A model generated the notes under the pieces. The model was not told the DNA's origin. It did not search any database and was given only the letters and a program-made list of their open reading frames with translations. From Calditrichia bacterium (GTDB taxonomy: Bacteria; Calditrichota; Calditrichia; Calditrichales; J004): a DNA stretch of 64,000 nucleotides. Where the stretch lies: positions 286,234 through 350,233 of the forward strand of contig JACKAO010000004.1 in assembly GCA_020635035.1 (NCBI GenBank), in the 5' to 3' direction. Below are positions 3,648-36,443 of the stretch, in pieces. Made by a program: the position numbers and the translations under genes. The first letter of the stretch is position 1. Every line of letters starts with the position of its first letter.

Positions 3648-3652
3648 TTTTT

Positions 3653-3784
3653 TATAGAAGCTGTTTCAAAAGAAGCAATTATTAACATCCTGAATGTGTT
3701 TCAGGATCTAATAAGAAATGGATTTAAAATTCCGGAATCAAATCGGAATGAAATGTTTGATGGTTTTTGAGACAGCTTCTTATA
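3653..3784 (+). promoter_or_regulatory. Structured intergenic element: a long closing helix enclosing two hairpins
   Basis: 3653-3671 pairs with 3765-3784 (15 contiguous pairs including one G-U, plus 4 more after a 1-nt bulge). Inner hairpins lie at 3687-3707 (8 bp) and 3729-3749 (6 bp). A T5 run follows at 3788-3792. I do not recognise the class. Confidence 0.35.
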
Positions 3785-14325: not shown

Positions 14326-14347
14326 ATTGAGAAAATTGGAAGTTTAA

Positions 14348-16819: not shown

Positions 16820-18071
16820 CAATAAGTTTAAAAATATTTATAAAAGATATTTTATTAAAGAAGCGCAAAAATCTCTTGAATGGTTTTCAAAAAAGGAATT
16901 TTACTATCGGGTTGATCTGGAAGTTAAGAGAAGCTATAGAACCGGCTCATCTTTAACCCTGGCACGAATTGAGTTTTTAGATCTCTTAACATCAAAGCTT
17001 AGTGAAATAAATAAGATTCAGGAAACAATTGATTTTATTGCCAGAAATGTAAGAGAGTGTGATATAAAATCATGCACAGAATCAAGGGTGATAGAAATTA
17101 TATTACTTGATACTTCAATAGATGGAGCAAAACAGTTTGCTCAAAAGATGAAAACACTTTTAAAGGATTTCTTTTTTGATGAATTTAATTTCTCAAGAAA
17201 CCTGGTAAACGACGGTGTTAAAATTCAGTTATATCCTTTGAATCAAATTCCGGATGACAAAGATAAAAATTCATCTGAAACTGTCGTTACAAATAAACCA
17301 GTAAATGATTCATCAAATGTCTATGAAAATATGCTTGATGATGAATTGAATGGTATTGAATATAATGGTTCTGCATTAGCAGTTTCCTATTACATACCGG
17401 ATAATCTTATTTACAAAGATATTTACACGTACTTATTTCATTTTTTTAAGAGAATAATTGATATTCTTGGTGCGCTAACAGGTATAATATTATTCTCACC
17501 AATAATGTTCCTTATTGCAGTACTTATAAAACTTGAATCAAAAGGTCCCATAATATTTCGGCAAAAGCGAATTGGCTACAAAGGAAAAGAATTTACGTTC
17601 TTTAAATTCAGATCAATGTCTAACAATAATGATCCAAAAATACATCAACAATATGTTGCTCAATTAATAGATGGTAATCATGAAAATCTGAACCAGGGAG
17701 ATGACACTAAGCCTGTTTATAAAATTACTGCTGATCCGCGTGTTACAAAAATCGGCAAGATACTTCGTGTAACAAGCCTTGATGAGTTACCCCAATTTTT
17801 TAATGTCCTTTTAGGTAACATGAGTCTTGTTGGGCCCAGACCCCCTATAGGATATGAGCTGGAGCATTATCAGAGCTGGCATTTAAGACGGGTTTTAGAA
17901 GTAAAACCAGGTATTACTGGTATTTGGCAGGTTCATGGCCGTAGTCTGACTACTTTTGATGAAATGGTCAGAATGGATCTGTTTTATGTTAAAAATCAAA
18001 GTGTATTTCTAGATATTAAAATCATCATAAAAACAATCACTGCTGTTATTAATTTCAGGGGTGCTTACTAG
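16803..18071 (+). CDS. Initiating polyprenyl-phosphate sugar-phosphate transferase (WbaP/EpsB-like bacterial sugar transferase) with an extra N-terminal domain
   Basis: C-terminal PF02397-like core (KRIIDILGA...IIFRQKRIGYKGKEFTFFKFRSM...DELPQFFNVLLGNMSLVGPRP). Start at ATG 16803 overlaps the Wzc end by 17 nt; the track start at 16683 reads the Tyr-cluster repeat out of frame. The N-terminal ~170 aa look like a degenerate GGDEF domain. Confidence 0.85.
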   Translation: MANLTNNKFKNIYKRYFIKEAQKSLEWFSKKEFYYRVDLEVKRSYRTGSSLTLARIEFLDLLTSKLSEINKIQETIDFIARNVRECDIKSCTESRVIEIILLDTSIDGAKQFAQKMKTLLKDFFFDEFNFSRNLVNDGVKIQLYPLNQIPDDKDKNSSETVVTNKPVNDSSNVYENMLDDELNGIEYNGSALAVSYYIPDNLIYKDIYTYLFHFFKRIIDILGALTGIILFSPIMFLIAVLIKLESKGPIIFRQKRIGYKGKEFTFFKFRSMSNNNDPKIHQQYVAQLIDGNHENLNQGDDTKPVYKITADPRVTKIGKILRVTSLDELPQFFNVLLGNMSLVGPRPPIGYELEHYQSWHLRRVLEVKPGITGIWQVHGRSLTTFDEMVRMDLFYVKNQSVFLDIKIIIKTITAVINFRGAY

Positions 18072-18098
18072 CAGGCAAAATTCAGGGAAGGAAAATCA

Positions 18099-19106
18099 AT
18101 GATTAATGTTGGTGTTATTGGTGTTGGCTATTGGGGGCCAAACATTATACGTAATTTTTATGCTCACCCTAAAACTAATGTTGTTAAATGTTCTGATTTG
18201 AGAGATGAGCGTCTGGCATATGTGAAAAAAACATATCCGGTTATAGAAACTACCAAAGATGCAAATGATGTAATTAACGATCCACGAATTGATTTAATCG
18301 CAATTATTACTCCGGTTTATACCCACTATGAATTGGCTAAAAGGTGTTTAGAAGCAGGAAAGCATGTTCTTATTGAAAAGCCTATGACCAGTAATAGTGC
18401 CGATAGTGAAAGGTTAATTGAATTAGCAAAAAGTAAAAATCTACAAATATTTGTAGACCATACTTTTGTGTTTACGGGTGCTGTTGCAAAAATAAAGGAA
18501 ACTATAAGCAGCGGTGAACTCGGTGATTTGTTTTATTTTGACTCCGTCAGGGTGAATTTAGGATTATTTCAACATGATATTAACGTGTTGTGGGATTTGG
18601 CACCACATGATATTTCCATAATGCAGACACTGTTGAATTTAAAACCGGAAAGTGTTGTTGCTACGGGATCGGACCATCTTAAAAATGGTATAGAAAATAT
18701 TGCCTATTTATCTGTTTATTATCCGGATAATGTTATCGGTCATATCCATGCTAATTGGTTGTCGCCCGTAAAAGTAAGGCAAACTCTTATAGCCGGTACT
18801 AAGAAAATGATTGTATGGGATGATATTGAACCAACAGAAAAAATTCGTATTTATGACAAAGGAATTGATGTTATTGAGACAGCCAATCAGGTATATGATA
18901 TGCTAATACAATACAGAACAGGGGATATGTATTGTCCCAAAATTAATTCGGCAGAAGCCTTAACTGTTGAAGTCGATAATATTGTTGCATGTCTTGAAGA
19001 AAATCAAAAAAGTTTAGCAAATGGTGAAGATGGTTTAATGGTAGTAAAAATTTTAGAAGCAGCTGAAAAGTCCCTTAAAAATCGTGGCCAAGAGGTAAAA
19101 ATATGA
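18099..19106 (+). CDS. Gfo/Idh/MocA-family sugar-nucleotide 3-dehydrogenase (WbpB/GnnA-like)
   Basis: N-terminal Rossmann motif (VGVIGVGYWGPN) and EKP motif (LIEKPMT). The context with an LbH acetyltransferase and a DegT aminotransferase supports the call. Confidence 0.75.
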   Translation: MINVGVIGVGYWGPNIIRNFYAHPKTNVVKCSDLRDERLAYVKKTYPVIETTKDANDVINDPRIDLIAIITPVYTHYELAKRCLEAGKHVLIEKPMTSNSADSERLIELAKSKNLQIFVDHTFVFTGAVAKIKETISSGELGDLFYFDSVRVNLGLFQHDINVLWDLAPHDISIMQTLLNLKPESVVATGSDHLKNGIENIAYLSVYYPDNVIGHIHANWLSPVKVRQTLIAGTKKMIVWDDIEPTEKIRIYDKGIDVIETANQVYDMLIQYRTGDMYCPKINSAEALTVEVDNIVACLEENQKSLANGEDGLMVVKILEAAEKSLKNRGQEVKI

Positions 19107-19576
19107 AATATGTAAGCATTGCAGATGATGTAAAACTTGGTAACAATGTTAAGATTTACAATTTTGTGAATCTATATGGCTGTGAAATCGGAGATGAAAC
19201 GAAAATCGGAACATTTGTTGAAATCCAAAAAGGTGTAAAAATAGGAAAGAATTGTAAGGTATCGAGTCATTCATTTTTATGTGAAGGTGTAACTGTAGAA
19301 GACAATGTTTTTATAGGTCATAACGTTACATTCATTAATGATATGTACCCAAGGGCAACAAATGATGATGGTGCACTGCAGACAGAAGATGATTGGGAAT
19401 GCATTGAAACGTTTGTCAAAAAGGGTGTTTCAATTGGTTCGAGTGCCACAATACTTGCTGGAATTACAATAAATGAGGGTGCAATGATTGGTGCCGGAAG
19501 TGTTGTAACAAAAGATGTTCCTGCAAATACAATTGTTGCCGGTAATCCCGCAAGAATAATCAGAAAAGTTAAATAG
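19103..19576 (+). CDS. Left-handed beta-helix (hexapeptide) N-acetyltransferase (WbpD-like)
   Basis: Hexapeptide repeats throughout (IGDETKIGTFVEIQKGVKIGKNCKV...). ATGA overlap with the upstream gene. Confidence 0.8.
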   Translation: MKYVSIADDVKLGNNVKIYNFVNLYGCEIGDETKIGTFVEIQKGVKIGKNCKVSSHSFLCEGVTVEDNVFIGHNVTFINDMYPRATNDDGALQTEDDWECIETFVKKGVSIGSSATILAGITINEGAMIGAGSVVTKDVPANTIVAGNPARIIRKVK

Positions 19577-19586
19577 GAATTAGAAC

Positions 19587-20696
19587 ATGAAAATACCATT
19601 TCTTGATTTAAAATCTCAATATTTAAGTATTAAAGATGATGTAAACCCAGCTATTCAGAATGTTTTAGATAACACAGCCTATGTCTTAGGTCCGGCTGTT
19701 AAAAATTTTGAAGATGAATTTGCATCAAAGCATCAAACAAAGCATTGTGTTGCAGTGAGTTCTGGAACTGATGCAAACCATCTTGTATTATGGGCTTTGG
19801 ATTTAGGGCCCGGAGATGAAGTAATAATACCTGCAAATACCTTCATTGCAACAGCCTGGGGAGCAACACTATGCGGTGCTACTCCAGTTTTTGTCGATTG
19901 TGAGAAGGATAGTTATAATATTGATCCGCAAGCTGTTGAAAAAGCGATCACACCCAGAACAAAAGCAATAGTAGCTGTTCATTTATATGGCCAGCCTGCT
20001 GATATGGATCCATTAATTAGGATTGGAAAAAAACATAATATTCCGGTGGTTGAAGATGCCGCTCAGGCGCATAATGCTGAATACAAAGGTAAGAAAATCG
20101 GTGGACTTGGATTAGCAACATCTTTTAGCTTTTATCCGGGAAAAAACCTGGGTGCCTATGGTGAAGGTGGTGCAGTATTAACCAATGACGACACTATTGC
20201 CAATAAAGCTAAAAGTATGCGGGATCATGGGGCCCTTGAGAAATATAACCATGAAATATATGGCCATAATTATAGAATGGAAGGTATTCAGGGAGCTGTT
20301 CTTGGAGTTAAACTTAAACATTTAGACTCATGGACGGACAACAGACGTCGCGTTGCCAATTTATATAATTCTGAGTTGTCTCAAATTAAACAGATCAAAA
20401 TTCCTCGTGAGATGGATTACGCTAAACATGTTTATCATTTATATGTTGTGCGGGTTGAAGAAGGCAAACGCGATCAATTGCGCGATTATCTGGCAGAAAA
20501 AGATATTGCAACAGGACTGCATTATCCTATTCCATTACACCTTCAAAAATGTTTCTCTTCTCTTGGGTATAAACAGGGAGATTTTCCTGTTAGTGAGAAA
20601 TTAGCATCAACAGGTCTTTCATTGCCAATATATCCAGAGTTGACAGATGAGATGGTTTTATATGTCTGCAATGCCATTAAAAGCTTTTATCTGTAA
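19587..20696 (+). CDS. DegT/DnrJ/EryC1/StrS-family PLP sugar aminotransferase (WbpE/GnnB-like)
   Basis: Typical family pattern (AVSSGTDA...EDAAQAHNAEYKGKKIG...SFYPGKNLGAYGEGGAV). Confidence 0.9.
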   Translation: MKIPFLDLKSQYLSIKDDVNPAIQNVLDNTAYVLGPAVKNFEDEFASKHQTKHCVAVSSGTDANHLVLWALDLGPGDEVIIPANTFIATAWGATLCGATPVFVDCEKDSYNIDPQAVEKAITPRTKAIVAVHLYGQPADMDPLIRIGKKHNIPVVEDAAQAHNAEYKGKKIGGLGLATSFSFYPGKNLGAYGEGGAVLTNDDTIANKAKSMRDHGALEKYNHEIYGHNYRMEGIQGAVLGVKLKHLDSWTDNRRRVANLYNSELSQIKQIKIPREMDYAKHVYHLYVVRVEEGKRDQLRDYLAEKDIATGLHYPIPLHLQKCFSSLGYKQGDFPVSEKLASTGLSLPIYPELTDEMVLYVCNAIKSFYL

Positions 20697-20713
20697 CAGG
20701 TTGTGGTTATAAG

Positions 20714-21634
20714 TTGATAAACAAAATCTTCTATCTGATTAAACCTGTTATTCCGCGTGTTGTGCAGATTTGGCTTAGGCGAATTTTAATTTCATATAAA
20801 AGGCAAAAATATGATGACATCTGGCCAATTGATTTTAACTCAGCAAAAAAACCTGCAGGTTGGAAAGGGTGGCCAGAAAATAAAGATTTCGCAATAGTTT
20901 TAACACATGATGTAGAGTTACAAAAAGGACATGATGTAAGTGTTAAATTAATGCGGATCGAAAAAGAATTAGGCTTTAAGTCTTCTTTTAATTTTGTACC
21001 GGAGAGATATATTGTTTCAGAAAAAGTGAGATCGGAGCTCTGTGAGAACGGCTTCGAAGTTGGAGTACACGGTTTAAATCATGATGGCAAACTCTTTTCC
21101 TCCAGGGAAGAATTTGATAAGAGAGCTTTAAAAATAAATAAATATATCAAGGACTGGAACGCGAAAGGTTTCCGGGCACCTGCAATGCACCATAACCTTG
21201 AATGGATTTCAGAATTAGATATAAAATACGATTTATCAACATTTGATACCGATCCCTTTGAACCGCAATCAGATGGCGTTGGGACAATATTTCCATTTTA
21301 TTATAAAAGTCAGATAACGGGTCGGGAATATCTTGAGATGCCTTATACCCTACCGCAGGATTTTACAACTTTTGTATTAATAGGTGAGAAATCTGCTGAT
21401 ATTTGGGTTAAAAAACTTGAGTGGTTAGTTGCGAATAACGCCATGGTTTTGGTAAATGTGCATCCGGATTATATCTGTTTTGAAGGTGATAAGAAAGGTG
21501 TAGAGCAATTTCCTGTTAAGATATATATTGATTTTCTTCGATATGTTAAAAACAATTATAAAGATAAATACTGGAATCCGTTACCGGATGAATTAGCAGA
21601 ATTTTGGAAAGAGAATTTTAATAATAAGAATTAA
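20714..21634 (+). CDS. Putative polysaccharide deacetylase-like (CE4-related) protein
   Basis: TTG start. LTHDVE and GVHGLNHD motifs are reminiscent of NodB/CE4-type metal sites. The assignment is tentative. Confidence 0.45.
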   Translation: MINKIFYLIKPVIPRVVQIWLRRILISYKRQKYDDIWPIDFNSAKKPAGWKGWPENKDFAIVLTHDVELQKGHDVSVKLMRIEKELGFKSSFNFVPERYIVSEKVRSELCENGFEVGVHGLNHDGKLFSSREEFDKRALKINKYIKDWNAKGFRAPAMHHNLEWISELDIKYDLSTFDTDPFEPQSDGVGTIFPFYYKSQITGREYLEMPYTLPQDFTTFVLIGEKSADIWVKKLEWLVANNAMVLVNVHPDYICFEGDKKGVEQFPVKIYIDFLRYVKNNYKDKYWNPLPDELAEFWKENFNNKN

Positions 21635-21715
21635 CTATTTATTCGCACCAAATCAAAAACATGATATATCAAAGCATATGCAGTTCTTGGCGAATATTTT
21701 TAAAGGTTTCTATAA

Positions 21716-22942
21716 ATGTATGAATCAGAAATAAACGGAATTAATAAAAAAAACCGAACTCCAATGGCGGTTATTGTTTATTCGTCTTTTCCCAGGGATG
21801 TTCGAGTTCGAAGAGAAACCGAAACGTTGCTTGGTGCCAATTATAAAATTGATTTATTTTGTCTTAGGCGTAAAGGCGAAGGGCAGTTAGCCAGAGAAAA
21901 GGGTGAAAATTTAAATATTTACAGGTCGCTTCCTGTTGGCAGTAGGGGGTTCCCGCTTCGTTATGTATTAGAATATTTTTATTTTACTCTGGCAACATTT
22001 CTCAAAGTTTCCTTTCTGTTCTTTAGAAGCAGATATAAATTGGTACATGTTCATAATATGCCTGACTTTCTGGTATTTGCAGCTTTAATCCCAAAACTTT
22101 TTGGTGCAAAAATACTGCTTGATCTGCATGATCCGACACCCGAAGTATTTATGGCAAAGTATAATGTTGATGAAAAAAATATTTTTATAAAGGTATTAAT
22201 TTTAATTGAAAAAATTAGTCTTGGATTTGCTGACTTTATTGTAACACCAAATCTGGCATTTAAAGAATTATTTGTGGCACGAGGCTGCCCTGCTTCTAAA
22301 ATCGATATTGTAATGAATGTACCTATGGAAAAAATTACAGATAGGTATGAAAATACTATACATAGTAAAATTCAACCCAGACCAAATCCTTTTGTGATTA
22401 TGTACCATGGTACAATTGTAAAGCGTCATGGACTTCTCACCGCGTTGGAGGCTATTCATATTTTAAAAGATAAAATATCTGACCTGAAATTTAATGTTTT
22501 CGGAAGAGGAGACTTTTTACCAGCATTCCTAAATGAGATTGAAACCCAAAATTTATCCGGTTTGGTAGAGTATAAAGGTTCTGTATTCAATGAAAAGATT
22601 TTCGACTATATTAATGAATGTAATTTGGGCGTTATTCCTAACCTAAATACAACTTTTACAAATTTAAATCTTCCGGTTAGAATATTTGAATATTTAGCAT
22701 TGAAAAAACCAGTAATCGTCCCCAAAACAAAAGGTATTACTGATTATTTTGACCAGAACAGCATTAATTATTTTGATGCCGGAGATGCGGAAAGTTTAGC
22801 GGAAACGATATTAGATGTTTATGAAAATTCAGAAAAGCAAAATAAGATAATTGAAAAAGGATTTGAAATATATTCCAAACATAAATGGTCTGAAGAAAAA
22901 AATGTATTAATCAGATCCGCAAATCAACTATTAGAAAAATAA
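21716..22942 (+). CDS. GT4-family (GT-B) glycosyltransferase
   Basis: C-terminal GT1/GT4 nucleotide-sugar-binding pattern (FGRGDF...PVRIFEYLALKKPVIVPKTKGITDYF). Confidence 0.8.
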   Translation: MYESEINGINKKNRTPMAVIVYSSFPRDVRVRRETETLLGANYKIDLFCLRRKGEGQLAREKGENLNIYRSLPVGSRGFPLRYVLEYFYFTLATFLKVSFLFFRSRYKLVHVHNMPDFLVFAALIPKLFGAKILLDLHDPTPEVFMAKYNVDEKNIFIKVLILIEKISLGFADFIVTPNLAFKELFVARGCPASKIDIVMNVPMEKITDRYENTIHSKIQPRPNPFVIMYHGTIVKRHGLLTALEAIHILKDKISDLKFNVFGRGDFLPAFLNEIETQNLSGLVEYKGSVFNEKIFDYINECNLGVIPNLNTTFTNLNLPVRIFEYLALKKPVIVPKTKGITDYFDQNSINYFDAGDAESLAETILDVYENSEKQNKIIEKGFEIYSKHKWSEEKNVLIRSANQLLEK

Positions 22943-22963
22943 CATTCAGACAAGGATTAGTGT

Positions 22964-23902
22964 ATGAAAAAAGCCAAAATATTAATTGCAAGTAAAATAG
23001 ATGCTTCAGCTATTACAAAACTGGAAGAAAAGTTTGATGTGATCTGTGCTTTTAATGCGGATAGTGAAACACTTAAAGAGAAAATAAAAGAATGTTCTAT
23101 TCTTGTTTTTAGAAGTGGAGTACAAATTACCAGAGAAGTGATGCAAAGCTCGGATAAGCTGCGATTAATCCTAAGGGCTGGTTCAGGCGTTGATAATATT
23201 GATATGAATTATGTTGCAGAAAATCCTTCAATTAAACTTGTTCGGATACCACAACCAGGCGCCAGGGCAGTAGCCGAGTTAAGTTTTGCCTTAATGTTGG
23301 CTCTCAGTCGGTCACTAATCGTTGCCAATCAGTCTGTTCAGGAAGGCAGATGGATAAAAAATCAGTTAACTGGATATCTTTTAAAAAACAAAGTCTTGGG
23401 GATTGTTGGAGCTGGCAATATTGGATGTACGGTTGGTCAGATGGGGCACAGTTGGGGAATGAATGTAATTGGATGTATTGACGAGGCAACCCATCCTGCG
23501 GATGTTAAACCCGCAGATTATGGAGTTGAGCTGATGAGTCTCGAAGAAGTAATGAAACGATCGGATTATGTTAGTATTCATGTTCCTAAAACAGAGAAAA
23601 CAATCTATATGATTAACAAAGAAAATTTATCTCTAATGAAACCTGGTGCTTTTTTGATGACTTTGGCAAGAGGTAAAGTTGTAAATGAAAAAGATCTTCT
23701 TGGAGCATTAACAAAGGAAAATGGCCTGGGTGGGGCCGGTCTGGATGTACACGAAGTTGAAGGCGAAGGAATGAAATCGCCTTTAGCAGGTTTACCAAAT
23801 GTAATTTTAACACCACATATTGGTGCTGCTACCTATGATTCAATGTACGAAATTGGTCAAATTGTAATTAAGCACGCCAATGAATTTTATAATTCATTAT
23901 AA
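22964..23902 (+). CDS. D-isomer-specific 2-hydroxyacid dehydrogenase (SerA-like, no ACT domain); candidate phosphonopyruvate reductase
   Basis: NAD site GIVGAGNIG. Catalytic Arg/Glu/His contexts ([21 protein letters not shown]). It ends 14 nt before pepM. The family call is firm; the substrate is an inference. Confidence 0.8.
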
Positions 23903-23916
23903 AAAAGGGAGAAATT

Positions 23917-24789
23917 ATGTTAAGAAAAACTACACAGTTTAAAAATATGCTGACATCTCCGGATCTCGAATTTATAATGGAAGCTCATAACGGGCTAAGT
24001 GCAAAAATCGTTGAAGAAGCAGGTTTTAAAGGAATCTGGGGAAGTGGTCTTTCCATTTCTGCTGCACTCGGTGTACGGGATAATAATGAAGCTAGTTGGA
24101 CACAGGTTCTGGAAGTTATAGAATTTATGAGTGATGCAACCACCATACCTTTACTATTAGATGCAGATACAGGTTATGGAAATTTTAATAATGCACGCAG
24201 GCTTGTTAAAAAACTTGAGCAAAGAAATATTGCTGCAATGTGTATTGAAGATAAAATTTTTCCTAAAACTAATTCTTTTATTAATGGTGAACAGCAACAA
24301 TTAGCCGAGGTTGATGAGTTTTGCGGAAAAATTAAAGCATCTAAAGACAGCCAATCAGATTCTGATTTTTGCGTTGTGGCACGGGTTGAAGCATTAATTG
24401 CCGGATGGGGTGTTGGTGAAGCCTTGAAAAGGGCGGAAGCCTATCACAATGCAGGTGCAGATGCTATACTCATGCATAGTAAAATAGCCACTGCTGATGA
24501 AATACTAGCGTTTATGAAAGAATGGAAAAATACTTGTCCAGTTGTAATTGTACCAACAATGTATTACCAGACACCCACTAATGTATTTGCAGAAGCAGGG
24601 GTAAGTCTGGTTATTTGGGCTAATCATTTGTTAAGAACAAGTTTGACAGCTATGCAACAAACAGCGGCAACAATTTTTAAGGAACGGTCTTTAAATTCTG
24701 TTGAAGGCAAAATCGCATCTGTAAAAGATATTTTCAGAATACAGAATGCAGATGAATTAAAGCAGGCTGAAAAAAAATACTTACCTTAA
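23917..24789 (+). CDS. pepM: Phosphoenolpyruvate phosphomutase (PEP mutase)
   Basis: PepM-diagnostic EDK-X5-NS motif ([10 protein letters not shown], nt 24247-24276), DADTGYG site and GSGLS motif. Length of 290 aa fits a stand-alone PepM. Confidence 0.85.
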
Positions 24790-24799
24790 GATTAAAATA

Positions 24800-25975
24800 A
24801 TGATTGATAATACACTACCACATGCGGTCCTTATCAGTATTGATAGTATGCCGGGGCTACAGGCAGCCCGTATTTTGGCAGCCAAAAAAATTCCGGTAAT
24901 TGCTATCGCGAAAGATAAAAATCATCACAGTTGCAGAACAAATGTATGCGAAGAAATTGTAATTACAGATACTGAATCTGAAAAATTGATTGAAAAACTG
25001 CAGGAATTAGGGCCAAAATTTCAAAAAAAAGCAATACTTTTTCCATGTCAGGATACTGATGTTTTATTGGTTTCCCGAAATAGATCCAAACTTTCATCCT
25101 GGTATGAAATAGCACTGCCTGAAGAAAATATTGTAGAGATGCTTATGGATAAAATGAAATTTTATTCATTTGCAGAAGCTAACTCTTTTCCGGTGCCCAA
25201 AACACTTATTATAAATAATAGTCGGGATCTTGATGGAGTTAAGAGTGAGTTGAATTTTCCGGTTCTGTTAAAACCTACAATCAGGACGCCTGAATGGATA
25301 GCGAATTCATCGATAAAGGCTTTTAAAATTGAAGATTTTGAACACCTTGTTTCTGTCTATGAAAAACACAGGAATTGGACTGAATCATTTGTTGTTCAAC
25401 AATGGCTTGAAGGTGATGATACTACCTTGTATTCTTGTAATTGCTATTTTGATAAGAATTCAAAGCCACATGCGGCATTTATTGCAAGAAAATTAAGACA
25501 GTGGCCACCAAGAACAGGGCAAAGCTGTCTAGGCGAAGAGTGCAGGAATGACGAAGTCCTTAATGTTTCGCTTGAAGTCTTCAAAAAAGTCAATTTTTTT
25601 GGATTGGGTTATCTGGAAATGAAGTTTGATCAAAGAACGCGTAAACATTATATAATTGAGCCAAATATTGGAAGACCCACCGGCAGATCAGCAATTGCAG
25701 AAGCCGGTGGCGTAGAGTTGTTATATAGCAAATATTGTGATTTAGCCGGATTGCCAATCCCTGAATCAATACAAAAATATGGGCATGCAAAATGGATTCA
25801 CATATTGCGTGATTTACAGTCTGCCTGGTTTTATTATAAAGAAGGAGAATTGACTTTTTCTCAGTGGGTTAAATCAATCCGTGGGAAAAAATCATATGCA
25901 ATCTTTTCATGGAAAGACCCGAAACCATTTTTAAGTGCTGCAAAAGCCGGGTTTTTTGAAATAATTAAAAGTTAG
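24800..25975 (+). CDS. ATP-grasp carboxylate-amine/thiol ligase family protein
   Basis: ATP-grasp hallmarks: FPVLLKP, VVQQWLEG, and GLGYLEMKFD...YIIEPNIGRPTG. Confidence 0.75.
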   Translation: MIDNTLPHAVLISIDSMPGLQAARILAAKKIPVIAIAKDKNHHSCRTNVCEEIVITDTESEKLIEKLQELGPKFQKKAILFPCQDTDVLLVSRNRSKLSSWYEIALPEENIVEMLMDKMKFYSFAEANSFPVPKTLIINNSRDLDGVKSELNFPVLLKPTIRTPEWIANSSIKAFKIEDFEHLVSVYEKHRNWTESFVVQQWLEGDDTTLYSCNCYFDKNSKPHAAFIARKLRQWPPRTGQSCLGEECRNDEVLNVSLEVFKKVNFFGLGYLEMKFDQRTRKHYIIEPNIGRPTGRSAIAEAGGVELLYSKYCDLAGLPIPESIQKYGHAKWIHILRDLQSAWFYYKEGELTFSQWVKSIRGKKSYAIFSWKDPKPFLSAAKAGFFEIIKS

Positions 25976-25980
25976 AATTA

Positions 25981-27024
25981 ATGAAAGATAAACTTAATTA
26001 CACCATTATTAATCCAATAGAACTTGATGATTGGGATGCAAAAGTTCAGAACTTTAAAAATTTCTCAATCTTTCATTCTTCGAATTGGATAAAAGTTCTT
26101 GTAAAAACGTATGGTTTTTATCCAAAATCGTTTGTGTTTGAAAAAAATAACGTCATTAAGGCAATCATTCCAATTCTTGAAGTAAACAGTATTATAACGG
26201 GAAAACGCGGAGTTTCTCTTCCATTCTCAGATCATTGTGATATTTTAACAAATGGGGATTTGCAGTCAGATGAAATTATTGAACATGTTCTCCTTTTTGC
26301 AAAAATGAATAAATGGGACTATGTGGAGTTTAGAAGCCTTAATAATAGCTTCAAAGGTAAGGATTCACATTTTTATCTAGGGCACATTCTCAAATTATCA
26401 GAAGACATTGATGCGCTTTATTCTGAAATGAAAAGTGCAAACAAACGTAATATCAAAAAAGCTATTAAAGAAAATGTAAAGATAGAGTTTTTAAATTCTT
26501 TGGATGCAATGAAGCAATATTACAGGCTACATAGTATGACAAGAAAGCGTCAGGGGGTACCACCCCAATCCTTTGAATTTTTTAAGAATATTTATGAAGA
26601 AATAATTTTAGACAATAAAGGACACATAATTCTTGGCTCCATTCAGGATAAAGTTGTGGCAGGTGCTGTTTTTATTTTCGCAGGTGAGAATGTTGTTTAT
26701 AAATTCGGGGCTTCAGATTATAGATTTCAAAACAGCAGAGCTAATAATTTACTTTTTTGGGAAGCCATTAAATTTTATTCAGAAAAAGGCTTTAAAACGC
26801 TGGATTTTGGAAGGACAGATCATGAACAGGATGGATTACGACAATTTAAACTAAGTTGGGGAACTGACGAAAAGAGAATATCATATTTTCGGTATAATCC
26901 GGACACGAAATCTGTTATTGATAATTCTCACACGAATGGAAAATTACAAACCAAAATTTTTAATATGATGCCGGAAAGCATGCTTAAGCTTATTGGCTCT
27001 AAATTATATAAACATATGGCCTGA
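25981..27024 (+). CDS. FemAB-like / GNAT (Acetyltransf_6-type) transferase
   Basis: Size and pattern fit FemAB/CelD-like GNATs (SANKRNIKKAIKENV...GAVFIFAGENVVYKFGASD...NNLLFWEAIKF). Confidence 0.65.
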   Translation: MKDKLNYTIINPIELDDWDAKVQNFKNFSIFHSSNWIKVLVKTYGFYPKSFVFEKNNVIKAIIPILEVNSIITGKRGVSLPFSDHCDILTNGDLQSDEIIEHVLLFAKMNKWDYVEFRSLNNSFKGKDSHFYLGHILKLSEDIDALYSEMKSANKRNIKKAIKENVKIEFLNSLDAMKQYYRLHSMTRKRQGVPPQSFEFFKNIYEEIILDNKGHIILGSIQDKVVAGAVFIFAGENVVYKFGASDYRFQNSRANNLLFWEAIKFYSEKGFKTLDFGRTDHEQDGLRQFKLSWGTDEKRISYFRYNPDTKSVIDNSHTNGKLQTKIFNMMPESMLKLIGSKLYKHMA

Positions 27025-27041
27025 AAAAATTTAGCTTTGAT

Positions 27042-28145
27042 ATGAATAAAATAGACTATGACATCCATGGTATTGTTGGAATCCGTTTAATAAACCCAAC
27101 ACAAACCGATGCTGATTTTATTGACGATAAATTAAACAAATTCAGAAAAAATCTTGAACGGGATCCTGATATTGTTTTTAGCTTTAAAGAAAACCTGGAC
27201 CTGGGGCCATTTAATTATCTGGGTCTGGATGCGTTGTTTACAGAAGATAGTTTTTATGCGGTTAGTAAAAAGGAAAACCTTAAAATTAAAATCCCCTTTG
27301 ATACTATAGGAGATAAATCAGAATTTATTGTTGAAAGTGGAAGTTACGATATCCCCTGGCTTTTTGATATTATAAATTTAACTTTTTTAAAAAAGAAATT
27401 TATCCCGATGCATTCTACCGCCTTTATGATGAATAATTCAGGGATTATGGTGATTGGCTGGTCCAAAGGAGGTAAAACAGAATCGCTGATGGCATTTGCA
27501 AACCATAATGCCCATTATGTAGGGGATGAATGGATAATGCTTTCCGGTGATGGCAGTAAAATGTACGGTATACCTGTTCCTATATGCTTATGGGAATGGC
27601 AATTTGAACACATACCAAAATTGCTTCCTAAAATAGGAATCCAAAGAAAAATACTTTTTAAAGGGATCCATTTTCTTAATTATATTCACAAACTTATAAA
27701 AAAATCCGCATTAGAAAGATCGTTTATTGCATCGATATTTAATAAGGCACTGCCACCTTTTAATAAGCAATTGAATATTCGCGTGACTCCTGAAAAAATA
27801 TTTCAGGAAAGGCAAAAGAGTTCTGCCAATCTTGATAAAATCATATTAAGCTTTAGCCATAATAGTCATGATTACAAATTGATAGAATCTGATTATAAGG
27901 AATTAGCTAAGCATGCTTTCTATTCGAATACTTATGAGCAATCTGAATTTTTAAATATGTACAGGGCGTATAAATTTGCATTTCCTGAAGGTAAAAATGA
28001 CTTTCTTGAAAACATTAATGAATTTCAATATTCTCTTATTATGGAAGCTTTTAAAAATAAAGAAACATATAAATTCTTTCATCCCTATCCTTTAAAATTT
28101 GAAGATATGTATAGCCATTTAAAGCATTTGGCAGATAATAATTAA
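27042..28145 (+). CDS. HPr-kinase-like P-loop protein (HprK-related kinase family)
   Basis: The segment MHSTAFMMNNSGIMVIGWSKGGKTESLMAFANHNAHYVGDEWIML parallels the HprK/P core (H-G-x-hh-G-x-S-G-x-GKSE...DD). The P-loop lies at nt 27456-27482. Confidence 0.55.
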   Translation: MNKIDYDIHGIVGIRLINPTQTDADFIDDKLNKFRKNLERDPDIVFSFKENLDLGPFNYLGLDALFTEDSFYAVSKKENLKIKIPFDTIGDKSEFIVESGSYDIPWLFDIINLTFLKKKFIPMHSTAFMMNNSGIMVIGWSKGGKTESLMAFANHNAHYVGDEWIMLSGDGSKMYGIPVPICLWEWQFEHIPKLLPKIGIQRKILFKGIHFLNYIHKLIKKSALERSFIASIFNKALPPFNKQLNIRVTPEKIFQERQKSSANLDKIILSFSHNSHDYKLIESDYKELAKHAFYSNTYEQSEFLNMYRAYKFAFPEGKNDFLENINEFQYSLIMEAFKNKETYKFFHPYPLKFEDMYSHLKHLADNN

Positions 28146-28168
28146 GAGTTGTAATTAAGGAGAGCTTA

Positions 28169-28852
28169 ATGGCCACGGTTGCTTTAATTGGTGCTGATGG
28201 AGCAGGAAAAACAACAGTTGCAAATACACTGGTTGCACAAAATCCTGATAAAATTAAATATATTTACATGGGTGGAAATTTGGAGTCAAGCAATATAAAA
28301 CTTCCTACAACCCACCTTATTGTGTTTATTCGCAGATTATTAAAGAAAAATTCTGATAAAGGTGTTTTTAATAAGTTAAATGAACAGCTAAAATCACCAG
28401 ATGAATGGTGGACCGGTGATAAAAGAGGTAGTTTTTTTGCGATTTTCAGGCTAATTAACCGAATTACTGAAGATTTCTACAGGATATTTGTTTCCTGGAT
28501 ATTTCAATTCAGGGGGTTTACAGTTCTGTATGATCGCCATGTGATGTTCGAAAAGATCAGAGATAAGAAGTTTAGAGATAATAAATTAAGATTAACTGAC
28601 AAAATTCATTTATGGATGATTAATAATATTTATCCTGATCCGGACTATGTAATTTTTCTTGATGCACCACCCGAAGTTCTGTTTAAAAGGAAAAAAGAGA
28701 CAACAGTTGAGTTTATCGAATATACGAGAAATATATATCTAAAAGCGGGTGAAAAATTAGACAATTTTTTTATAGTCAATGTAGATAAAGACCTGAATTT
28801 GATTTGTTCAGAAATAATTAATCTGCTTTTTGTTAAGCCTGTAAAAGCTTGA
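28169..28852 (+). CDS. NMP/dNMP-kinase-fold P-loop protein (thymidylate-kinase-like)
   Basis: N-terminal Walker A IGADGAGKTT (nt 28190-28216) and the late motif FLDAPPEVLFKRK, typical of this kinase fold. SD aggaga. Confidence 0.6.
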   Translation: MATVALIGADGAGKTTVANTLVAQNPDKIKYIYMGGNLESSNIKLPTTHLIVFIRRLLKKNSDKGVFNKLNEQLKSPDEWWTGDKRGSFFAIFRLINRITEDFYRIFVSWIFQFRGFTVLYDRHVMFEKIRDKKFRDNKLRLTDKIHLWMINNIYPDPDYVIFLDAPPEVLFKRKKETTVEFIEYTRNIYLKAGEKLDNFFIVNVDKDLNLICSEIINLLFVKPVKA

Positions 28853-28889
28853 ATAATGAGTATTAGAAATTATTGGAAATGATTGTAAA

Positions 28890-29744
28890 ATGAAATATGC
28901 ACTTTTTACTGCGGCAAAAAATGAAGAAGCTTTTATTAAAAAAACTCTTGAATCAGTGGTATCACAAACTAAGTTACCAGTCAAATGGATTATTGTTAGT
29001 GATGGGTCAACTGATCATACAAATGAAATAGTAGAAAATTATTCAGACAAATATAATTTTATTGAGCTAATTAGCATCTCAAAACAAGAACAAAGAAATT
29101 TTGGTTCAAAGGCAAAGGCATTAGAAACTGCTTATTCTAAATTGAAAATATTTGATTTTGAGTTTATTGGCAACCTTGATGCAGATGTTTCGTTTAACCA
29201 ACATTATTTTGAAAAAATTCTGTTAAAATTTAAAGAAAATCCACAATTAGGCATTGCAGGTGGAGTAAGATATGACTGGCATGGTGATCAATTTAGAATA
29301 GTGAAAAGTGCTCGTAATAGTGTTGGAGGTCCATTTCAATTCTTTAGGAAAAAATGTTATGATGAAATTGGTGGATATCTTGCTCTTCAATATGGTGGTA
29401 TTGATGCGGTTGCGGAAATCATGGCTCGTTATAAAGGATGGGAAGTAGAATCATTCCCAGAAATGCACGTTTATCATTATAGAAGAACTGGCTCTGCTAC
29501 CGGGAGTTTCATCAAAACCAGGTTCAGGTACGGTATAAAGAATTATATGATAGGATATCATCCAGTTTATGAGCTTATTAGGGCAATAAGGCAAAGTCCT
29601 ACCAAGCCAATAATTGTTGGCAGTATTTCACAATTGGTGGGATTTTTTTACGCAATGCACAAGAGATTAAAACGGCCTGTTAGTAATGAGTTTGTAAAGT
29701 TTTTAAGAACAGAAAATTTACAAACATTAAAAAAGTTAATATAA
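28890..29744 (+). CDS. GT2-family glycosyltransferase
   Basis: N-terminal GT-A pattern (TLESVVSQTKLPVKWIIVSDGSTDHT...LDADV). Confidence 0.8.
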   Translation: MKYALFTAAKNEEAFIKKTLESVVSQTKLPVKWIIVSDGSTDHTNEIVENYSDKYNFIELISISKQEQRNFGSKAKALETAYSKLKIFDFEFIGNLDADVSFNQHYFEKILLKFKENPQLGIAGGVRYDWHGDQFRIVKSARNSVGGPFQFFRKKCYDEIGGYLALQYGGIDAVAEIMARYKGWEVESFPEMHVYHYRRTGSATGSFIKTRFRYGIKNYMIGYHPVYELIRAIRQSPTKPIIVGSISQLVGFFYAMHKRLKRPVSNEFVKFLRTENLQTLKKLI

Positions 29745-29803
29745 TAATGTATAAATAATCTATTCTATAAAGGTAATAAATCGGATTCAGGCAAAGTTTT
29801 GTT

Positions 29804-30700
29804 ATGGTCTTATGTTCGGTATGTATTAATACTTTTAGGCGCCCGCAACTACTTACTATTCTTTTGGAAAGCTTAGTTAATCAGCACGTTCCAGAGTATT
29901 TGTCTTTTGAGATAATTGTTGTTGACAATGAACCAGAGCCAAAAAACCGCAGTATTGTCGAGAAATATTCAAATGAAAAGATAAAGGTTCATTATTTGCA
30001 TGAATGTACTAAAAATATAAGTTTAGCCAGAAATATGGCTGTAAAAAACGCTAAAGGAGATTACATTTTTTTTATCGATGATGATGAAATTGCGTGTTCT
30101 CATTGGATTTTTTATCTATATGATACTTTGGTTAAATATAGAGTTGATGCGGTTTTTGGTAGAATTATTCCCTACTTTGATGAGAATGCACCGGAATGGG
30201 TTAAAAACGCTTATATTTTTTATAGAGCTCAGAACAAGACAGGTACAAAAACAACCTACGGACGTACAGGAAATGCAATAGTAAAAAAAGAATGGTTAAA
30301 TAAAGTTGAAGGACCATTCGATGAAAACTTCGGTTTAACTGGAGGTGAAGATACCAATCTTTTTTCTAAATTAAACAAGCTTGGAGCAAAATATGTAGAA
30401 TGTTTTGAAGGATTTGTGAGAGAATATGTTCCGCCGGAAAGAACAGAAATAAGATGGATGCTCAATCGTGCAAAAAGAATGGGGATGATTTTTGTAAGAC
30501 GAAGCGTTTCAAATTCAAATTATCCTAGTCTAATAATATTAAAAATATTTGGAAAATCAATCATATTGTTTTTATTTAGTATAGTTTGTCTAACAATTTT
30601 TTATCCTGTAAAAAAGTACAGATTATTTTGGTTATTAAAAATTTCATCTTATTATGGTCACTTTGAGTCTATCTTTAAGCCTATTTCAATCGGTTACTGA
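29804..30700 (+). CDS. GT2-family glycosyltransferase with C-terminal TM helices (paralog 1)
   Basis: CINTFRRPQLL...IIVVDNE...YIFFIDDDE. The hydrophobic C-terminus is paralogous to the next gene. Confidence 0.8.
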   Translation: MVLCSVCINTFRRPQLLTILLESLVNQHVPEYLSFEIIVVDNEPEPKNRSIVEKYSNEKIKVHYLHECTKNISLARNMAVKNAKGDYIFFIDDDEIACSHWIFYLYDTLVKYRVDAVFGRIIPYFDENAPEWVKNAYIFYRAQNKTGTKTTYGRTGNAIVKKEWLNKVEGPFDENFGLTGGEDTNLFSKLNKLGAKYVECFEGFVREYVPPERTEIRWMLNRAKRMGMIFVRRSVSNSNYPSLIILKIFGKSIILFLFSIVCLTIFYPVKKYRLFWLLKISSYYGHFESIFKPISIGY

Positions 30701-30723
30701 CATATAACTAATAGCAGAAAAAA

Positions 30724-31650: not shown

Positions 31651-31718
31651 TTTCTATCTTTGGTGGCTTATTCTCACGCTAAATTCATACTACATGGAAA
31701 TTTGATTTTTTAAACTTT

Positions 31719-33173: not shown

Positions 33174-33187
33174 AATCACTTTTATTT

Positions 33188-36044: not shown

Positions 36045-36443
36045 ACTAAAATCCTTTTGTTTTTTATAAATATATATCAACTACTTACAACTAATATGCC
36101 AACATTGGTTTTTTTTAACCAGCGAAAATAAGTTTTAAAGAAAGAGCTATAAACTGAAAAAATTGAGATTTTGTATAACGTCTTTTTTTTAATCTGTTTA
36201 TTTTGTAATTTCAATTAAATTATTGGAATAAATTTAGTAATATTTCTCTTTTGTGTATTAGTACATCCGTTAATTATAGTATTAAGCGTAAATGATTATT
36301 CTTTTGATGTATTTTGAGTAGTTAATTTAATCATTTATAATACAAATGTGACAATTGACAAATAAATTTTAGCTTTTAAATATAGATTAAAGCTTTTTCT
36401 AATTCTGTTGTTAAAACATGGATTTTTTTACAATGGTAAAATT

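Follow-up and report, generated by a model that had tools for sequence, protein, structure and literature searches.

A predicted dehydrogenase–PEP mutase–ATP-grasp module within a Wzx/Wzy polysaccharide locus of a Calditrichia bacterium

The polysaccharide locus and its PEP mutase gene

The window, by which we mean the whole 64-kb stretch of DNA analysed here, carries a 20.8-kb Wzx/Wzy-dependent polysaccharide locus (13723..34474, + strand), all genes of which lie on one strand with intergenic gaps of -137 to 81 nt. The family scan covered 29 ORFs, 19 of the locus and 10 flanking it. Pfam assignments within the locus included the flippase Wzx (PF01943), the polymerase Wzy (PF04932), an initiating phosphoglycosyl transferase (PF02397), the Wza/Wzc pair (PF02563 and PF02706/PF13807/PF13614), a 3-amino-sugar module, one GT4 and three GT2 glycosyltransferases. 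Mid-operon, with the GT4 on one side and the three GT2s, Wzx and Wzy on the other, sits a module of three genes encoding a dehydrogenase, a PEP mutase (PepM) and an ATP-grasp protein; the gaps around it are 5–37 nt.

The GT4 gene (21716..22942, + strand; Pfam GT4/GT1 domains) lies directly upstream of the dehydrogenase and is a recurrent partner of the module. Its product shares 48% identity with the GT4 encoded first in the stand-alone operon L087 (GT4-dehydrogenase-PepM-ATP-grasp), and 46% and 33% with a GT4 each of L085 and L004. A BshA-like GT4 using a malate analogue as acceptor is a low-probability idea; the L087 GT4 scored a negligible 16.5 bits (E 0.0032) on the BshA model, whose cut-off is 273.7. 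Further upstream, the gene at 20714..21634 (+ strand) encodes a NodB-type polysaccharide deacetylase (PF01522 at 1.3e-4, just under the cut-off), with a 63% identical orthologue in L019. Deacetylase genes flank the module in 10 of the 27 dehydrogenase-type loci; in L007, L009, L012, L013 and L023, which are of the Chloroflexota type, and in the metagenomic contig L088, the dehydrogenase gene comes directly after one. The NodB-type enzyme is a candidate source of a free amine acceptor.

By sequence, the ORF at 23917..24789 (+ strand) is a bona fide PEP mutase in its enzyme identity, in a stand-alone form of 290 aa. The equivalog model TIGR02320 of NCBIfam gave it 401 bits, above the cut-off of 319.55, and PF13714 gave 3.1e-61; with the sister models for phosphonopyruvate hydrolase, methylisocitrate lyase and CPEP mutase it remained under every cut-off. 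The identification as PepM rather than a methylisocitrate-lyase-type relative, made in a preliminary description of this DNA, therefore held. Its best match among solved structures was the Mytilus PEP mutase 1m1b (E 5.9e-136), and the suggested comparison with characterised PepM enzymes, carried out for Mytilus, gave an end-to-end alignment. The diagnostic EDK-X5-NS motif lies at nt 24247-24276 (aa 111-120) and DADTGYG at nt 24160-24180 (aa 82-88). All seven Mg2+/substrate residues of the Mytilus enzyme are conserved in the gap-free alignment with 1m1b, by our own offset count of +3; D55, D82, D84, E111, K117, N119 and S120 presumably correspond to Mytilus D58, D85, D87, E114, K120, N122 and S123. 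Because full-length similarity to this crystallised and catalytically characterised enzyme is strong, the product would be expected to convert PEP to phosphonopyruvate. The equilibrium of this reaction favours PEP more than 500-fold (PMC12871164).

A PGDH-type dehydrogenase and the distribution of phosphonopyruvate decarboxylase

The ORF at 22964..23902 (+ strand) encodes a short D-2-hydroxyacid dehydrogenase of the phosphoglycerate dehydrogenase (PGDH) type, 312 aa long and a predicted phosphonopyruvate reductase. It is separated from pepM by 14 nt (AAAAGGGAGAAATT), which include an RBS-like GGGAG. The protein matched 2-Hacid_dh_C (PF02826) at 6.9e-50 and also 2-Hacid_dh (PF00389), and its top NCBIfam and PDB matches were phosphoglycerate dehydrogenases (1wwk, 3.3e-57). 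It fell under every NCBIfam cut-off; on TIGR01327, where it reached 243.6 bits, this was because the C-terminal part of the model was unmatched. The motifs GAGNIG (23408-23425), LARGK (23663-23677), DVHEVE (23744-23761) and PHIGAAT (23813-23833) were located, and in 21 orthologues GAGNIG and the R236/E266/H285 triad are near-invariant. Hence, the preliminary description of a PGDH-type dehydrogenase with an NAD site and catalytic Arg, Glu and His agrees with the domain matches, the best hits and the conserved triad. The two ORFs, the 14-nt gap, all six motifs, including the two of PepM, and the coordinates given for EDK-X5-NS were likewise as first described. Near-invariance among the 21 orthologues extends to the PGDH-type residues R50-S51, R71 and K132. 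Of the PGDH-specific anion-binding residues, R50-S51 and K132 align with R51-S52 and R132 of the Mycobacterium tuberculosis PGDH, and an aligned glyoxylate reductase lacks R50-S51, R71 and K132.

The enzymes of the AEP route were sought by two approaches. Among the 29 ORFs scanned, no TPP-enzyme, NTP-transferase, LicD or AEP-transaminase family was found; the sole Aminotran_5 match was weak and secondary, on the DegT-type sugar aminotransferase that is the only aminotransferase in the locus. A tblastn search of the whole 64-kb window was also empty; its queries were real sequences from the related loci L060 and L027, namely two Ppd (phosphonopyruvate decarboxylase) proteins, one nucleotidyltransferase of the PntC type and one Fe-ADH. 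Ppd, PntC or Fe-ADH genes hidden in the window were therefore rejected as candidates. The earlier statement that a ThDP-dependent decarboxylase, an AEP transaminase, a PntC/LicC-type cytidylyltransferase and LicD are absent from the locus is thus borne out by the Pfam and NCBIfam model searches it had called for and by tblastn. A Ppd could be encoded outside the window.

We then turned to other genomes and compared the 80 PepM loci closest to this one, a co-occurrence survey of the kind proposed earlier for FCB-group genomes. In 21 of these loci PepM is preceded by the dehydrogenase at a distance of about 1 kb, none with Ppd, and Ppd is present in 53, none with the dehydrogenase; six loci were uninformative. 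The mutual exclusion gives a Fisher p of 2.9e-14, which overstates independence because the loci form essentially one clade and the pattern reflects essentially one evolutionary event; apart from that in L087, the dehydrogenase-linked PepMs are a single clade. In all 53 Ppd loci the decarboxylase lies within ~2.5 kb of PepM, usually immediately downstream, and in 50 of them PepM is fused to a nucleotidyltransferase (fusions of ~535 aa). No Ppd was found within 10 kb in any dehydrogenase-type locus. The dehydrogenase as a conserved alternative to the decarboxylase, as the preliminary description had it, is therefore upheld by 21 against 53 loci.

The position of the dehydrogenase about 1 kb upstream of PepM is fixed across phyla, and the remaining locus varies. 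Wza/Wzc, GT2, GT4, Wzy or deacetylase genes surround the module in Calditrichia, Ignavibacteria, Bacteroidota and Chloroflexota loci, so that it is embedded in glycan loci of four phyla with differing flanking glycan genes. Carriers belong to Calditrichota, Ignavibacteriota, Bacteroidota, Chloroflexota, Actinomycetota and Desulfuromonadota-type genomes, and the module has spread through the EPS loci of these six groups by horizontal transfer. In L026, L049 and L069 it lies outside an EPS locus; the divergent neighbour in L026 is the lipid II flippase Amj, with a homologue at the same position in L049. The stand-alone L087 operon has no Wzx or Wzy nearby. Different hosts may therefore modify different glycoconjugates, or the target may be a small glycoside.

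The preliminary description had argued that phosphonopyruvate is the C-P isostere of 3-phosphohydroxypyruvate. This is loose: phosphonopyruvate lacks the bridging oxygen, is one atom shorter and is equally an analogue of oxaloacetate. Its proposal that reduction to phosphonolactate provides the thermodynamic pull fared better than that argument and stands as the best reading, because Ppd is absent, dehydrogenase and Ppd are mutually exclusive, and the PGDH-specific residues are retained. On this best reading, the dehydrogenase would reduce phosphonopyruvate to phosphonolactate and act as the coupling enzyme of PepM. The predicted PepM and reductase steps, from PEP through phosphonopyruvate to phosphonolactate, are well supported by the sequence comparisons.

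The ATP-grasp protein and the facultative neighbours

The third member of the module, at 24800..25975 (+ strand), is a predicted ATP-grasp carboxylate-amine ligase, assigned from its fold match and its co-occurrence. It had no Pfam match at the default threshold, its NCBIfam ATP-grasp matches were weak and all under cut-off, and phmmer against the PDB returned only weak Ddl matches. The AF2 model (pLDDT 91.6) matched PurK, biotin carboxylase, RizA and PylC in Foldseek at E ~1e-17 and TM 0.55-0.65, which confirms a three-domain ATP-grasp fold for the modelled protein; no subfamily was singled out. Source labels are 'D-aspartate ligase' or 'carboxylate--amine ligase', and many JGI homologues bear the former. 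Aslfm of Enterococcus faecium is an ATP-grasp enzyme that activates a carboxylate of D-Asp, a small C4 acid, and joins it by an amide bond to a cell-wall precursor that carries a free amine. The label likens the window protein to Aslfm; unlike there, the partners here are PepM and a dehydrogenase, not aspartate racemase.

The gene is present in 25 of the 27 dehydrogenase-type loci, and the two without it are contig ends. Conversely, all three of the homologues sampled (53-61% identity) directly follow a dehydrogenase-PepM pair. The pairing described earlier is hence sound, and as a unit it was drawn too narrowly, since it omitted the ATP-grasp gene and the recurrent, specific GT4. The co-occurrence in 25 of 27 loci points to phosphonolactate as the ATP-grasp substrate. 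The enzyme could instead form an ester at the 2-OH of phosphonolactate, by analogy with VlpF, which attaches valine to an alcohol in this way (PMC12723261), or its substrate for ligation could be an amino acid.

Three further genes follow the module and are facultative. The first (25981..27024, + strand; PF13480, PF02388) encodes a FemAB-family transferase of the aminoacyl-tRNA-dependent type, which scored 129.6 bits on TIGR03019, under the cut-off; such a gene occurs in 9 of the 27 loci. A relationship to FemAB was considered for c41, a 288-aa ORF that follows the module in L026 and L049, and was dropped as BLASTP and NCBIfam gave no support.

The second (27042..28145, + strand) encodes a P-loop protein of PEP-carboxykinase/HprK-like fold. 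Pfam, NCBIfam and phmmer against the PDB returned no match, so that family assignment by sequence was abandoned and only structure prediction with Foldseek was informative. The AF2 model (pLDDT 92.6) matched ATP-PEPCK over both domains at E 2e-6, a loose similarity (TM 0.5, 10-12% identity), followed by HprK/P. Residues H124, G143-G144-K145 and D162-E163 are invariant; a weak hhalign alignment (E 0.041) placed H124 and K145 on H232 and K254 of Escherichia coli PEPCK, and the protein, with 367 aa against 540 aa for PEPCK, is probably a member of the superfamily without being a PEPCK itself. There are 324 homologues, and the source names shown are all 'hypothetical protein'.

The third (28169..28852, + strand) encodes a thymidylate-kinase-like P-loop kinase (PF02223 at 9.4e-07, 29.1 bits against a cut-off of 27; P-loop at residues 4-26), which occurs in 17 of the 27 loci, the window and 16 related ones. 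We rejected the two P-loop proteins as dedicated phosphonate enzymes: they are absent from about half of the module loci and occur in EPS loci without PepM, L084 having both genes and L086 the PEPCK-like one. Both are probably facultative EPS-locus kinases that phosphorylate something else, and the pathway model below gives neither a role. A PepM without Ppd that adjoins a thymidylate-kinase-like gene also occurs in GCF 540 (PMC8942020); no dehydrogenase is mentioned in the part of that source that treats GCF 540.

Proposed pathway, alternative readings and known systems

We propose, with a probability of about 0.6, that the three-gene module in the Wzx/Wzy operon converts PEP through phosphonopyruvate to phosphonolactate and ligates the latter to a glycan amine. 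PepM would form phosphonopyruvate from PEP. The PGDH-like dehydrogenase would then use NAD(P)H to reduce phosphonopyruvate at its 2-oxo group to phosphonolactate, pulling the unfavourable mutase equilibrium and replacing Ppd; this step is proposed because gene order is conserved, exclusion with Ppd is strict and the phosph(on)ate-binding residues are retained. The ATP-grasp enzyme would activate a carboxylate as an acyl phosphate and join it to an amine, a ligation chemistry suggested by universal co-occurrence and the chemistry of the family. Most simply, the carboxylate would be C1 of phosphonolactate, as for PnaB with phosphonoalanine. The most plausible acceptor would be an amino sugar, freed by the NodB-type deacetylase or made by the DegT module; alternatively, an amino acid added by the FemAB-type enzyme may serve. 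GT4, the GT2s, Wzx and Wzy would build and export a repeat unit with an amide-linked 3-phosphonolactoyl group, and nucleotide activation would play no part. Gene context suggests the phosphonolactoyl-bearing repeat unit, the attachment to polysaccharide and phosphonolactate as the final form. More tentatively, the module may define a cross-phylum class of envelope phosphonate decoration, in which an ATP-grasp enzyme amide-links 3-phosphonolactate to amino sugars of EPS and possibly, at the Amj-adjacent loci, to lipid II-linked precursors.

Several other readings share part of this evidence. With the same early steps, attachment might proceed through phosphorus: the P-loop enzymes would phosphorylate phosphonolactate to an activated donor (a pyrophosphonate or a 2-phospho derivative), transfer of which to a hydroxyl of a sugar would leave a phosphonate ester or a phosphodiester, and the ATP-grasp enzyme would amidate, for example, a uronic acid. 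Such amidation is known from Campylobacter jejuni, where ATP-grasp amidoligases act on capsule glucuronate. The two kinase genes do directly follow the module in the window operon and accompany it in 13-17 of the 27 loci, and a PEPCK-like fold suits a C3 phospho-acid ligand. We nevertheless regard this route as unlikely, as the kinases are missing from 10-14 dehydrogenase-PepM-ATP-grasp loci, including the minimal operons L087, L026, L049 and L069, the pair recurs in the PepM-less EPS locus L084 and the PEPCK-like member in L086, and Pfam found no LicD-type or similar transferase in the locus. Those same four stand-alone operons, which have no Wzx or Wzy, would fit a diffusible small molecule, with the polysaccharide-locus position incidental or regulatory. 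3-Phosphonolactate is an analogue of malate or 3-phosphoglycerate. The product could then be a pseudo-peptide or depsipeptide of phosphonolactate (from the ATP-grasp and FemAB-type enzymes) or a sugar-phosphonolactate glycoside comparable to GlcNAc-malate or glucosyl-3-phosphoglycerate. The characterised PnPy-reductase and PnPy-transaminase pathways all lead through ATP-grasp ligases to small phosphonopeptides (PMC11867202, PMC12723261), and tRNA-dependent GNAT-type enzymes make other phosphonopeptides (PMC11867202). Against this, the window module lies mid-operon, 5–37 nt from its neighbours, between the GT4 and the GT2s, Wzx and Wzy, the embedding recurs in four phyla amid differing glycan genes, and Pfam revealed in the window locus neither an exporter nor a self-resistance gene of the sort usual in antibiotic clusters, which makes a small molecule improbable.

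The dehydrogenase might also serve the glycan, as an enzyme of the SerA or glycerate type, with a Ppd and AEP transaminase elsewhere pulling PepM towards an ordinary AEP phosphonoglycan. This is very unlikely: the genome view here spans 64 kb and a protein under every NCBIfam cut-off has a substrate undefined by sequence, but Ppd lies within ~2.5 kb of PepM in 53 of 53 Ppd-type relatives and within 10 kb in no dehydrogenase-type locus, across phyla the dehydrogenase keeps its place ~1 kb upstream of PepM in otherwise changing loci, and neither a cytidylyltransferase (nucleotidyltransferase tblastn, 64 kb) nor LicD to install AEP was found in the locus. Least probable of all is a catabolic direction, from environmental phosphonolactate through phosphonopyruvate downhill to PEP. 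The >500-fold equilibrium towards PEP (PMC12871164) would make it thermodynamically easy, yet Pfam found no phosphonate transporter or regulator in the operon, the pair is embedded among glycosyltransferases, and an ATP-consuming ligase universally coupled to it would be senseless for catabolism.

The branch point of the proposed pathway is already known from valinophos, of which the module in polysaccharide loci is a variant. PMC8942020 catalogues the reduction of phosphonopyruvate by VlpB, an accepted branch point, and VlpB has been used as a 'PnPy reductase' (PMC11867202); these two papers and PMC12871164 give the precedent for VlpB as PnPy reductase and coupling enzyme of PepM. Non-AEP phosphonoglycans are known as well, a 2-hydroxyethylphosphonate conjugate having been purified from an exopolysaccharide (cited in PMC8942020). 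These precedents remove part of the novelty initially claimed; what stands is that the searched literature (on phosphonolactate, phosphonoglycans and pepM with a hydroxyacid dehydrogenase) held no description of this module. As in the valinophos cluster of Streptomyces durhamensis (VlpA, a PepM, and VlpB), PepM is coupled to a reductase of the D-2-hydroxyacid-dehydrogenase family that replaces Ppd, phosphonolactate (here predicted) is the first committed product, and the cluster includes an ATP-grasp ligase, VlpF in valinophos (PMC8942020, PMC12723261, PMC11867202). Unlike that small-molecule cluster, to which it is likened by family and gene context, the module here belongs to a Wzx/Wzy operon and occurs in Calditrichota and other non-actinobacterial phyla. 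The window locus also differs in lacking the functions of VlpC-E: neither its 19 ORFs nor the gene tables of L084-L089 showed an amino-acid-kinase, semialdehyde-dehydrogenase or alcohol-dehydrogenase family. The pathway therefore probably retains the carboxylate and does not reduce it to a diol. VlpC-E, a kinase and reductases, reportedly convert phosphonolactate to 2,3-dihydroxypropylphosphonate, in work of Zhang et al. from 2022.

The three-part logic, with a non-decarboxylating enzyme acting at C2, is shared with the phosphonoalamide pathway (PnaD, a PepM; PnaA, an aminotransferase; PnaB/PnaC, ATP-grasp enzymes), in which PnaB activates the C1 carboxylate of a 3-phosphono C3 acid (PMC11867202). 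Here, in contrast, coupling would fall to a dehydrogenase, whose product would bear a hydroxyl at C2 in place of an amino group, and a glycan amine replaces the dipeptide as predicted acceptor; the ATP-grasp protein, likened to PnaB by pathway logic, has no Pfam match at the default threshold. As in AEP phosphonoglycans such as Bacteroides fragilis polysaccharide B, PepM lies within a surface-polysaccharide locus and the phosphonate is presumably surface-displayed (PMC6697681, PMC8942020). Unlike in those systems (PepM-Ppd-AEPT-PntC-LicD), Ppd, transaminase, nucleotidyltransferase and LicD are absent and nucleotide activation is not evident, and the stand-alone 290-aa PepM differs from the ~535-aa PepM-nucleotidyltransferase fusions of most Ppd-type relatives.

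The prevailing view is that surface phosphonates are nearly always AEP-type head groups, put in place via Ppd and CMP activation (PMC6697681). If true, the cross-phylum class of decoration suggested above would be an exception to the rule that nucleotidyl activation predominates. The segment 21716-25975 offers a concrete construct of three or four genes. The module, reductase-coupled, carboxylate-retaining and with its own ligase, would if confirmed bring to glycans a new substituent, anionic and resistant to hydrolysis, together with a new way of attaching phosphonates. It would also represent a sink so far left out of the environmental C-P cycle, the carrier phyla being abundant in sediments, soils and bioreactors, and would mean that the phosphonolactate branch point is used well beyond Streptomyces antibiotics.

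The PEP mutase, the dehydrogenase and their operon

Both open reading frames of the preliminary description, together with every motif cited for them, were found at the claimed coordinates. The ORF at 23917-24789 scored 401 bits on the NCBIfam equivalog of PEP mutase (PepM; cut-off 319.55) and stayed below the NCBIfam models of the sister enzymes, which bears out its earlier reading as a PepM and not a lyase relative. The crystallised PEP mutase of Mytilus edulis aligns to it gap-free (E 5.9e-136), and, in our offset count, every residue that serves catalysis or metal binding in the Mytilus enzyme is kept. By sequence criteria, the ORF is shown to be a PepM. The ORF at 22964-23902 encodes a D-2-hydroxyacid dehydrogenase (DH) of 312 aa with short phosphoglycerate dehydrogenases (PGDH) as best matches, and ends, as described previously, 14 nt upstream of PepM, with a GGGAG within the spacer. 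In residue-level alignments, DH retains the PGDH-type residues R50-S51, R71 and K132, which are absent from the aligned glyoxylate reductase. Their aligned counterparts in the PGDH of M. tuberculosis are R51-S52 and R132, which we take to be phosphate-binding positions.

PepM and DH sit in a tightly packed 20.8-kb operon on one strand, which also encodes Wza, Wzc, a phosphoglycosyl transferase, a 3-amino-sugar module, a GT4 and three GT2 glycosyltransferases, Wzx and Wzy; identical proteins at NCBI are labelled as a Calditrichae MAG. The usual partners of PepM had been described as absent from the locus, and this held in the searches performed. Family scans of 29 ORFs in and around the locus gave no match to ThDP enzyme, nucleotidyltransferase or LicD families, and Aminotran_5 was matched only weakly, as a secondary hit of the DegT sugar aminotransferase. 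Likewise, tblastn of the 64-kb window with queries from related loci (two genuine phosphonopyruvate decarboxylases (Ppd), a PntC-type nucleotidyltransferase and an Fe-alcohol dehydrogenase) returned nothing; in this MAG, a Ppd may be encoded outside the window.

Several other features of the region were recorded. A GFO/IDH/MocA oxidoreductase, a left-handed-beta-helix acetyltransferase and a DegT aminotransferase follow each other at 18099-20696 (+), the first two with a 4-nt start/stop overlap; together they form a module of the WbpB/D/E or GnnA/B type, which makes a 3-amino-3-deoxy sugar. The locus showed no UDP-GlcNAc 6-dehydrogenase. Within 14348-18071 (+), the listed phosphoglycosyl transferase ORF (16683-18071, 462 aa) overlaps Wzc by 137 nt; NCBI calls the identical protein at 422 aa, so that translation probably begins about 120 nt further downstream. 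Directly past Wzy and convergent to it lies a pectate-lyase/RhgA-epimerase-like beta-helix protein (34443-36080, -), followed by a T9SS C-terminal-sorting-domain protein with NHL/phytase-like repeats (36408-37991, +) and a choice-of-anchor Q protein (38001-39323, -). The three may modify the EPS or be secreted proteins of the cell surface.

Comparison of PepM loci and a third conserved gene

The 80 closest PepM loci (69-83% identity, one genome per species scanned) were compared, 6 of which were truncated or uninformative. In 21 loci, PepM is preceded at about 1 kb by a DH homologue of 47-56% identity; in a 22nd (L038), the two genes are 9.3 kb apart. None of the 21 DH loci has a Ppd, nucleotidyltransferase or Fe-alcohol dehydrogenase within 10 kb. 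Conversely, Ppd lies no further than about 2.5 kb from PepM in 53 loci, in 50 of which PepM is fused to a nucleotidyltransferase; none of the 53 has a DH of the window's type. The mutual exclusion of DH and Ppd gave a Fisher p of 2.9e-14. In a neighbour-joining PepM tree, the DH-linked PepMs form essentially one clade, with that of locus L087 outside; what the statistic captures is therefore a single ancient change of the coupling enzyme and its subsequent lateral spread, not many independent events. Carriers of the DH type are labelled Chloroflexota, Calditrichia, Ignavibacteria, Bacteroidota, Acidimicrobiia, Pelobacter, Desulfuromonas and Pedobacter. Their PepMs are stand-alone proteins of 290-310 aa, whereas the Ppd-type relatives are mostly fusions of about 535 aa, joining PepM to a MobA/PntC-like nucleotidyltransferase domain with Ppd directly after (L060 9995-11602, L027 10004-11602 and about 50 other loci).

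In a clustering of all ORFs of the DH-type loci, the ORF at 24800-25975 was nearly as conserved as DH and PepM, being present in 25 of the 27 loci of the presence table, with a contig edge right after PepM in the two exceptions. Pfam gave no match at default threshold. Its AlphaFold model (pLDDT 91.6) has a canonical ATP-grasp fold and matches PurK, biotin carboxylase, the L-amino-acid ligase RizA and PylC (E about 1e-17), and the public names of its homologues are 'carboxylate--amine ligase' or 'D-aspartate ligase'. Three homologues with 53-61% identity, picked only for their long contigs, all lie directly after DH-PepM. One of the three, L087, is a stand-alone four-gene operon, GT4-DH-PepM-ATP-grasp, whose GT4 is 48% identical to the one preceding DH in the window. 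The preliminary description, which took the DH-PepM pair as the unit, was largely right on the first two steps of the pathway but incomplete on the unit, as it missed the universal ATP-grasp and the recurrent GT4. The ATP-grasp family also has unusually many invariant or near-invariant cysteines (C45, C50, C83, C213, C215, C243 and C313 in alignment A2), which may serve a metal site or a redox function.

Other partners were facultative: a thymidylate-kinase-like (TMK-like) P-loop protein (17 of 27 loci), the family of ORF 27042-28145 (13), NodB-type deacetylases (10) and FemAB-family transferases (9). Glycan assembly genes were likewise frequent around the module. For ORF 27042-28145 (+), no sequence-level annotation was found in Pfam, NCBIfam or PDB, and all source names shown for its 324 homologues are 'hypothetical'. 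The P-loop GWSKGGKTE, H124 and D162-E163 are invariant in the family. Its AF2 model (pLDDT 92.6) resembles ATP-dependent PEP carboxykinase (PEPCK) over both domains (E 2e-6, TM about 0.5) and HprK/P across the P-loop domain, and a weak profile alignment places the invariant H124 and K145 on PEPCK H232 and K254. The ORF was not assigned to phosphonate chemistry, because its family, often accompanied by a TMK-like gene, recurs in EPS loci with and without PepM alike; further members lie at 9001-10194 of L084 and 9001-10185 of L086.

A predicted route through phosphonolactate

In the proposed mechanism, PepM would make phosphonopyruvate and DH would reduce it to phosphonolactate, giving the pull that Ppd supplies elsewhere; we strongly infer that DH is a phosphonopyruvate reductase of this kind. 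Such a coupling role is established for VlpB of the Streptomyces valinophos pathway, and NAD(P)H-driven reduction is among the accepted coupling reactions (PMC8942020, PMC11867202, PMC12871164). By the chemistry of its family, the ATP-grasp would then form an acyl phosphate and pass its acyl group on to a nucleophile. Most simply, it would act on the C1 carboxylate of phosphonolactate, just as PnaB of the phosphonoalamide pathway activates phosphonoalanine (PMC11867202). Amines are plausible acceptors: the neighbouring deacetylase could expose them, the DegT module could make them, or a FemAB-type enzyme could add them. Based on the operon embedding, and on the same embedding in several phyla, the host locus would assemble and export the decorated unit.

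The module also occurs outside EPS loci, in the group of L026, L049 and L069, where Amj, the alternative lipid II flippase, adjoins it in L026 and, by homology, in L049; L087 has no Wzx or Wzy nearby. Because of these loci, the acceptor may vary from host to host; alternatively, a small glycoside or a pseudo-peptide may be produced. The operons of this Pelobacter/Desulfuromonas-type subgroup (L026 6720-12690, L049, L069 5948-11632) have the order ATP-grasp-DH-PepM plus a membrane protein of about 215 aa, and those of L026 and L049 also hold a 288-aa protein; neither protein had a family match. The operon is divergent to Amj, with PEP carboxylase nearby, in L026, and triose-phosphate isomerase is near in L069, which points tentatively to peptidoglycan or a lipid-linked molecule as the target in this subgroup.

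Two further neighbourhoods were noted. A recurrent EPS gene set (L084 1-19194, L086 1-11248, L089 4628-12584) has DUF4956 in all three loci, along with a VTC-like polyphosphate-polymerase domain protein and a CotH-kinase/beta-helix protein of about 1000 aa, and further includes a GHMP kinase and SIS isomerase in L084 and L089 and sulfotransferases in L084; it suggests heavily phosphorylated or sulfated polysaccharides; the L089 version has the PepM module plugged in. On the Bacteroidota-type contig L085, pyruvate kinase is represented by two neighbouring fragments and ATP sulfurylase by one (1500-2535 and 3088-3726), all a few kb upstream of DH-PepM; these sequences from PEP and sulfate metabolism could be either split genes or pseudogenes.

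Relation to known phosphonate systems

The window module lacks every enzyme that defines AEP phosphonoglycans after PepM. It is not a DHPPA route either, because the downstream kinase and reductase genes reported for valinophos are missing. The title of the 2022 valinophos paper claims broad conservation. The preliminary description somewhat overstated the novelty of the chemistry, as phosphonopyruvate to phosphonolactate is a catalogued branch point that makes up, with the FrbC-type clusters included, 5.3% of the pepM neighbourhoods of complete genomes, with Streptomyces, three Proteobacteria and one Firmicute as examples (PMC8942020). In full-text searches of the literature on phosphonolactate, phosphonoglycans and pepM with hydroxyacid dehydrogenases, we found no description of a DH-PepM-ATP-grasp module in polysaccharide loci. 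This module is well supported by comparative genomics, and its product is experimentally accessible.
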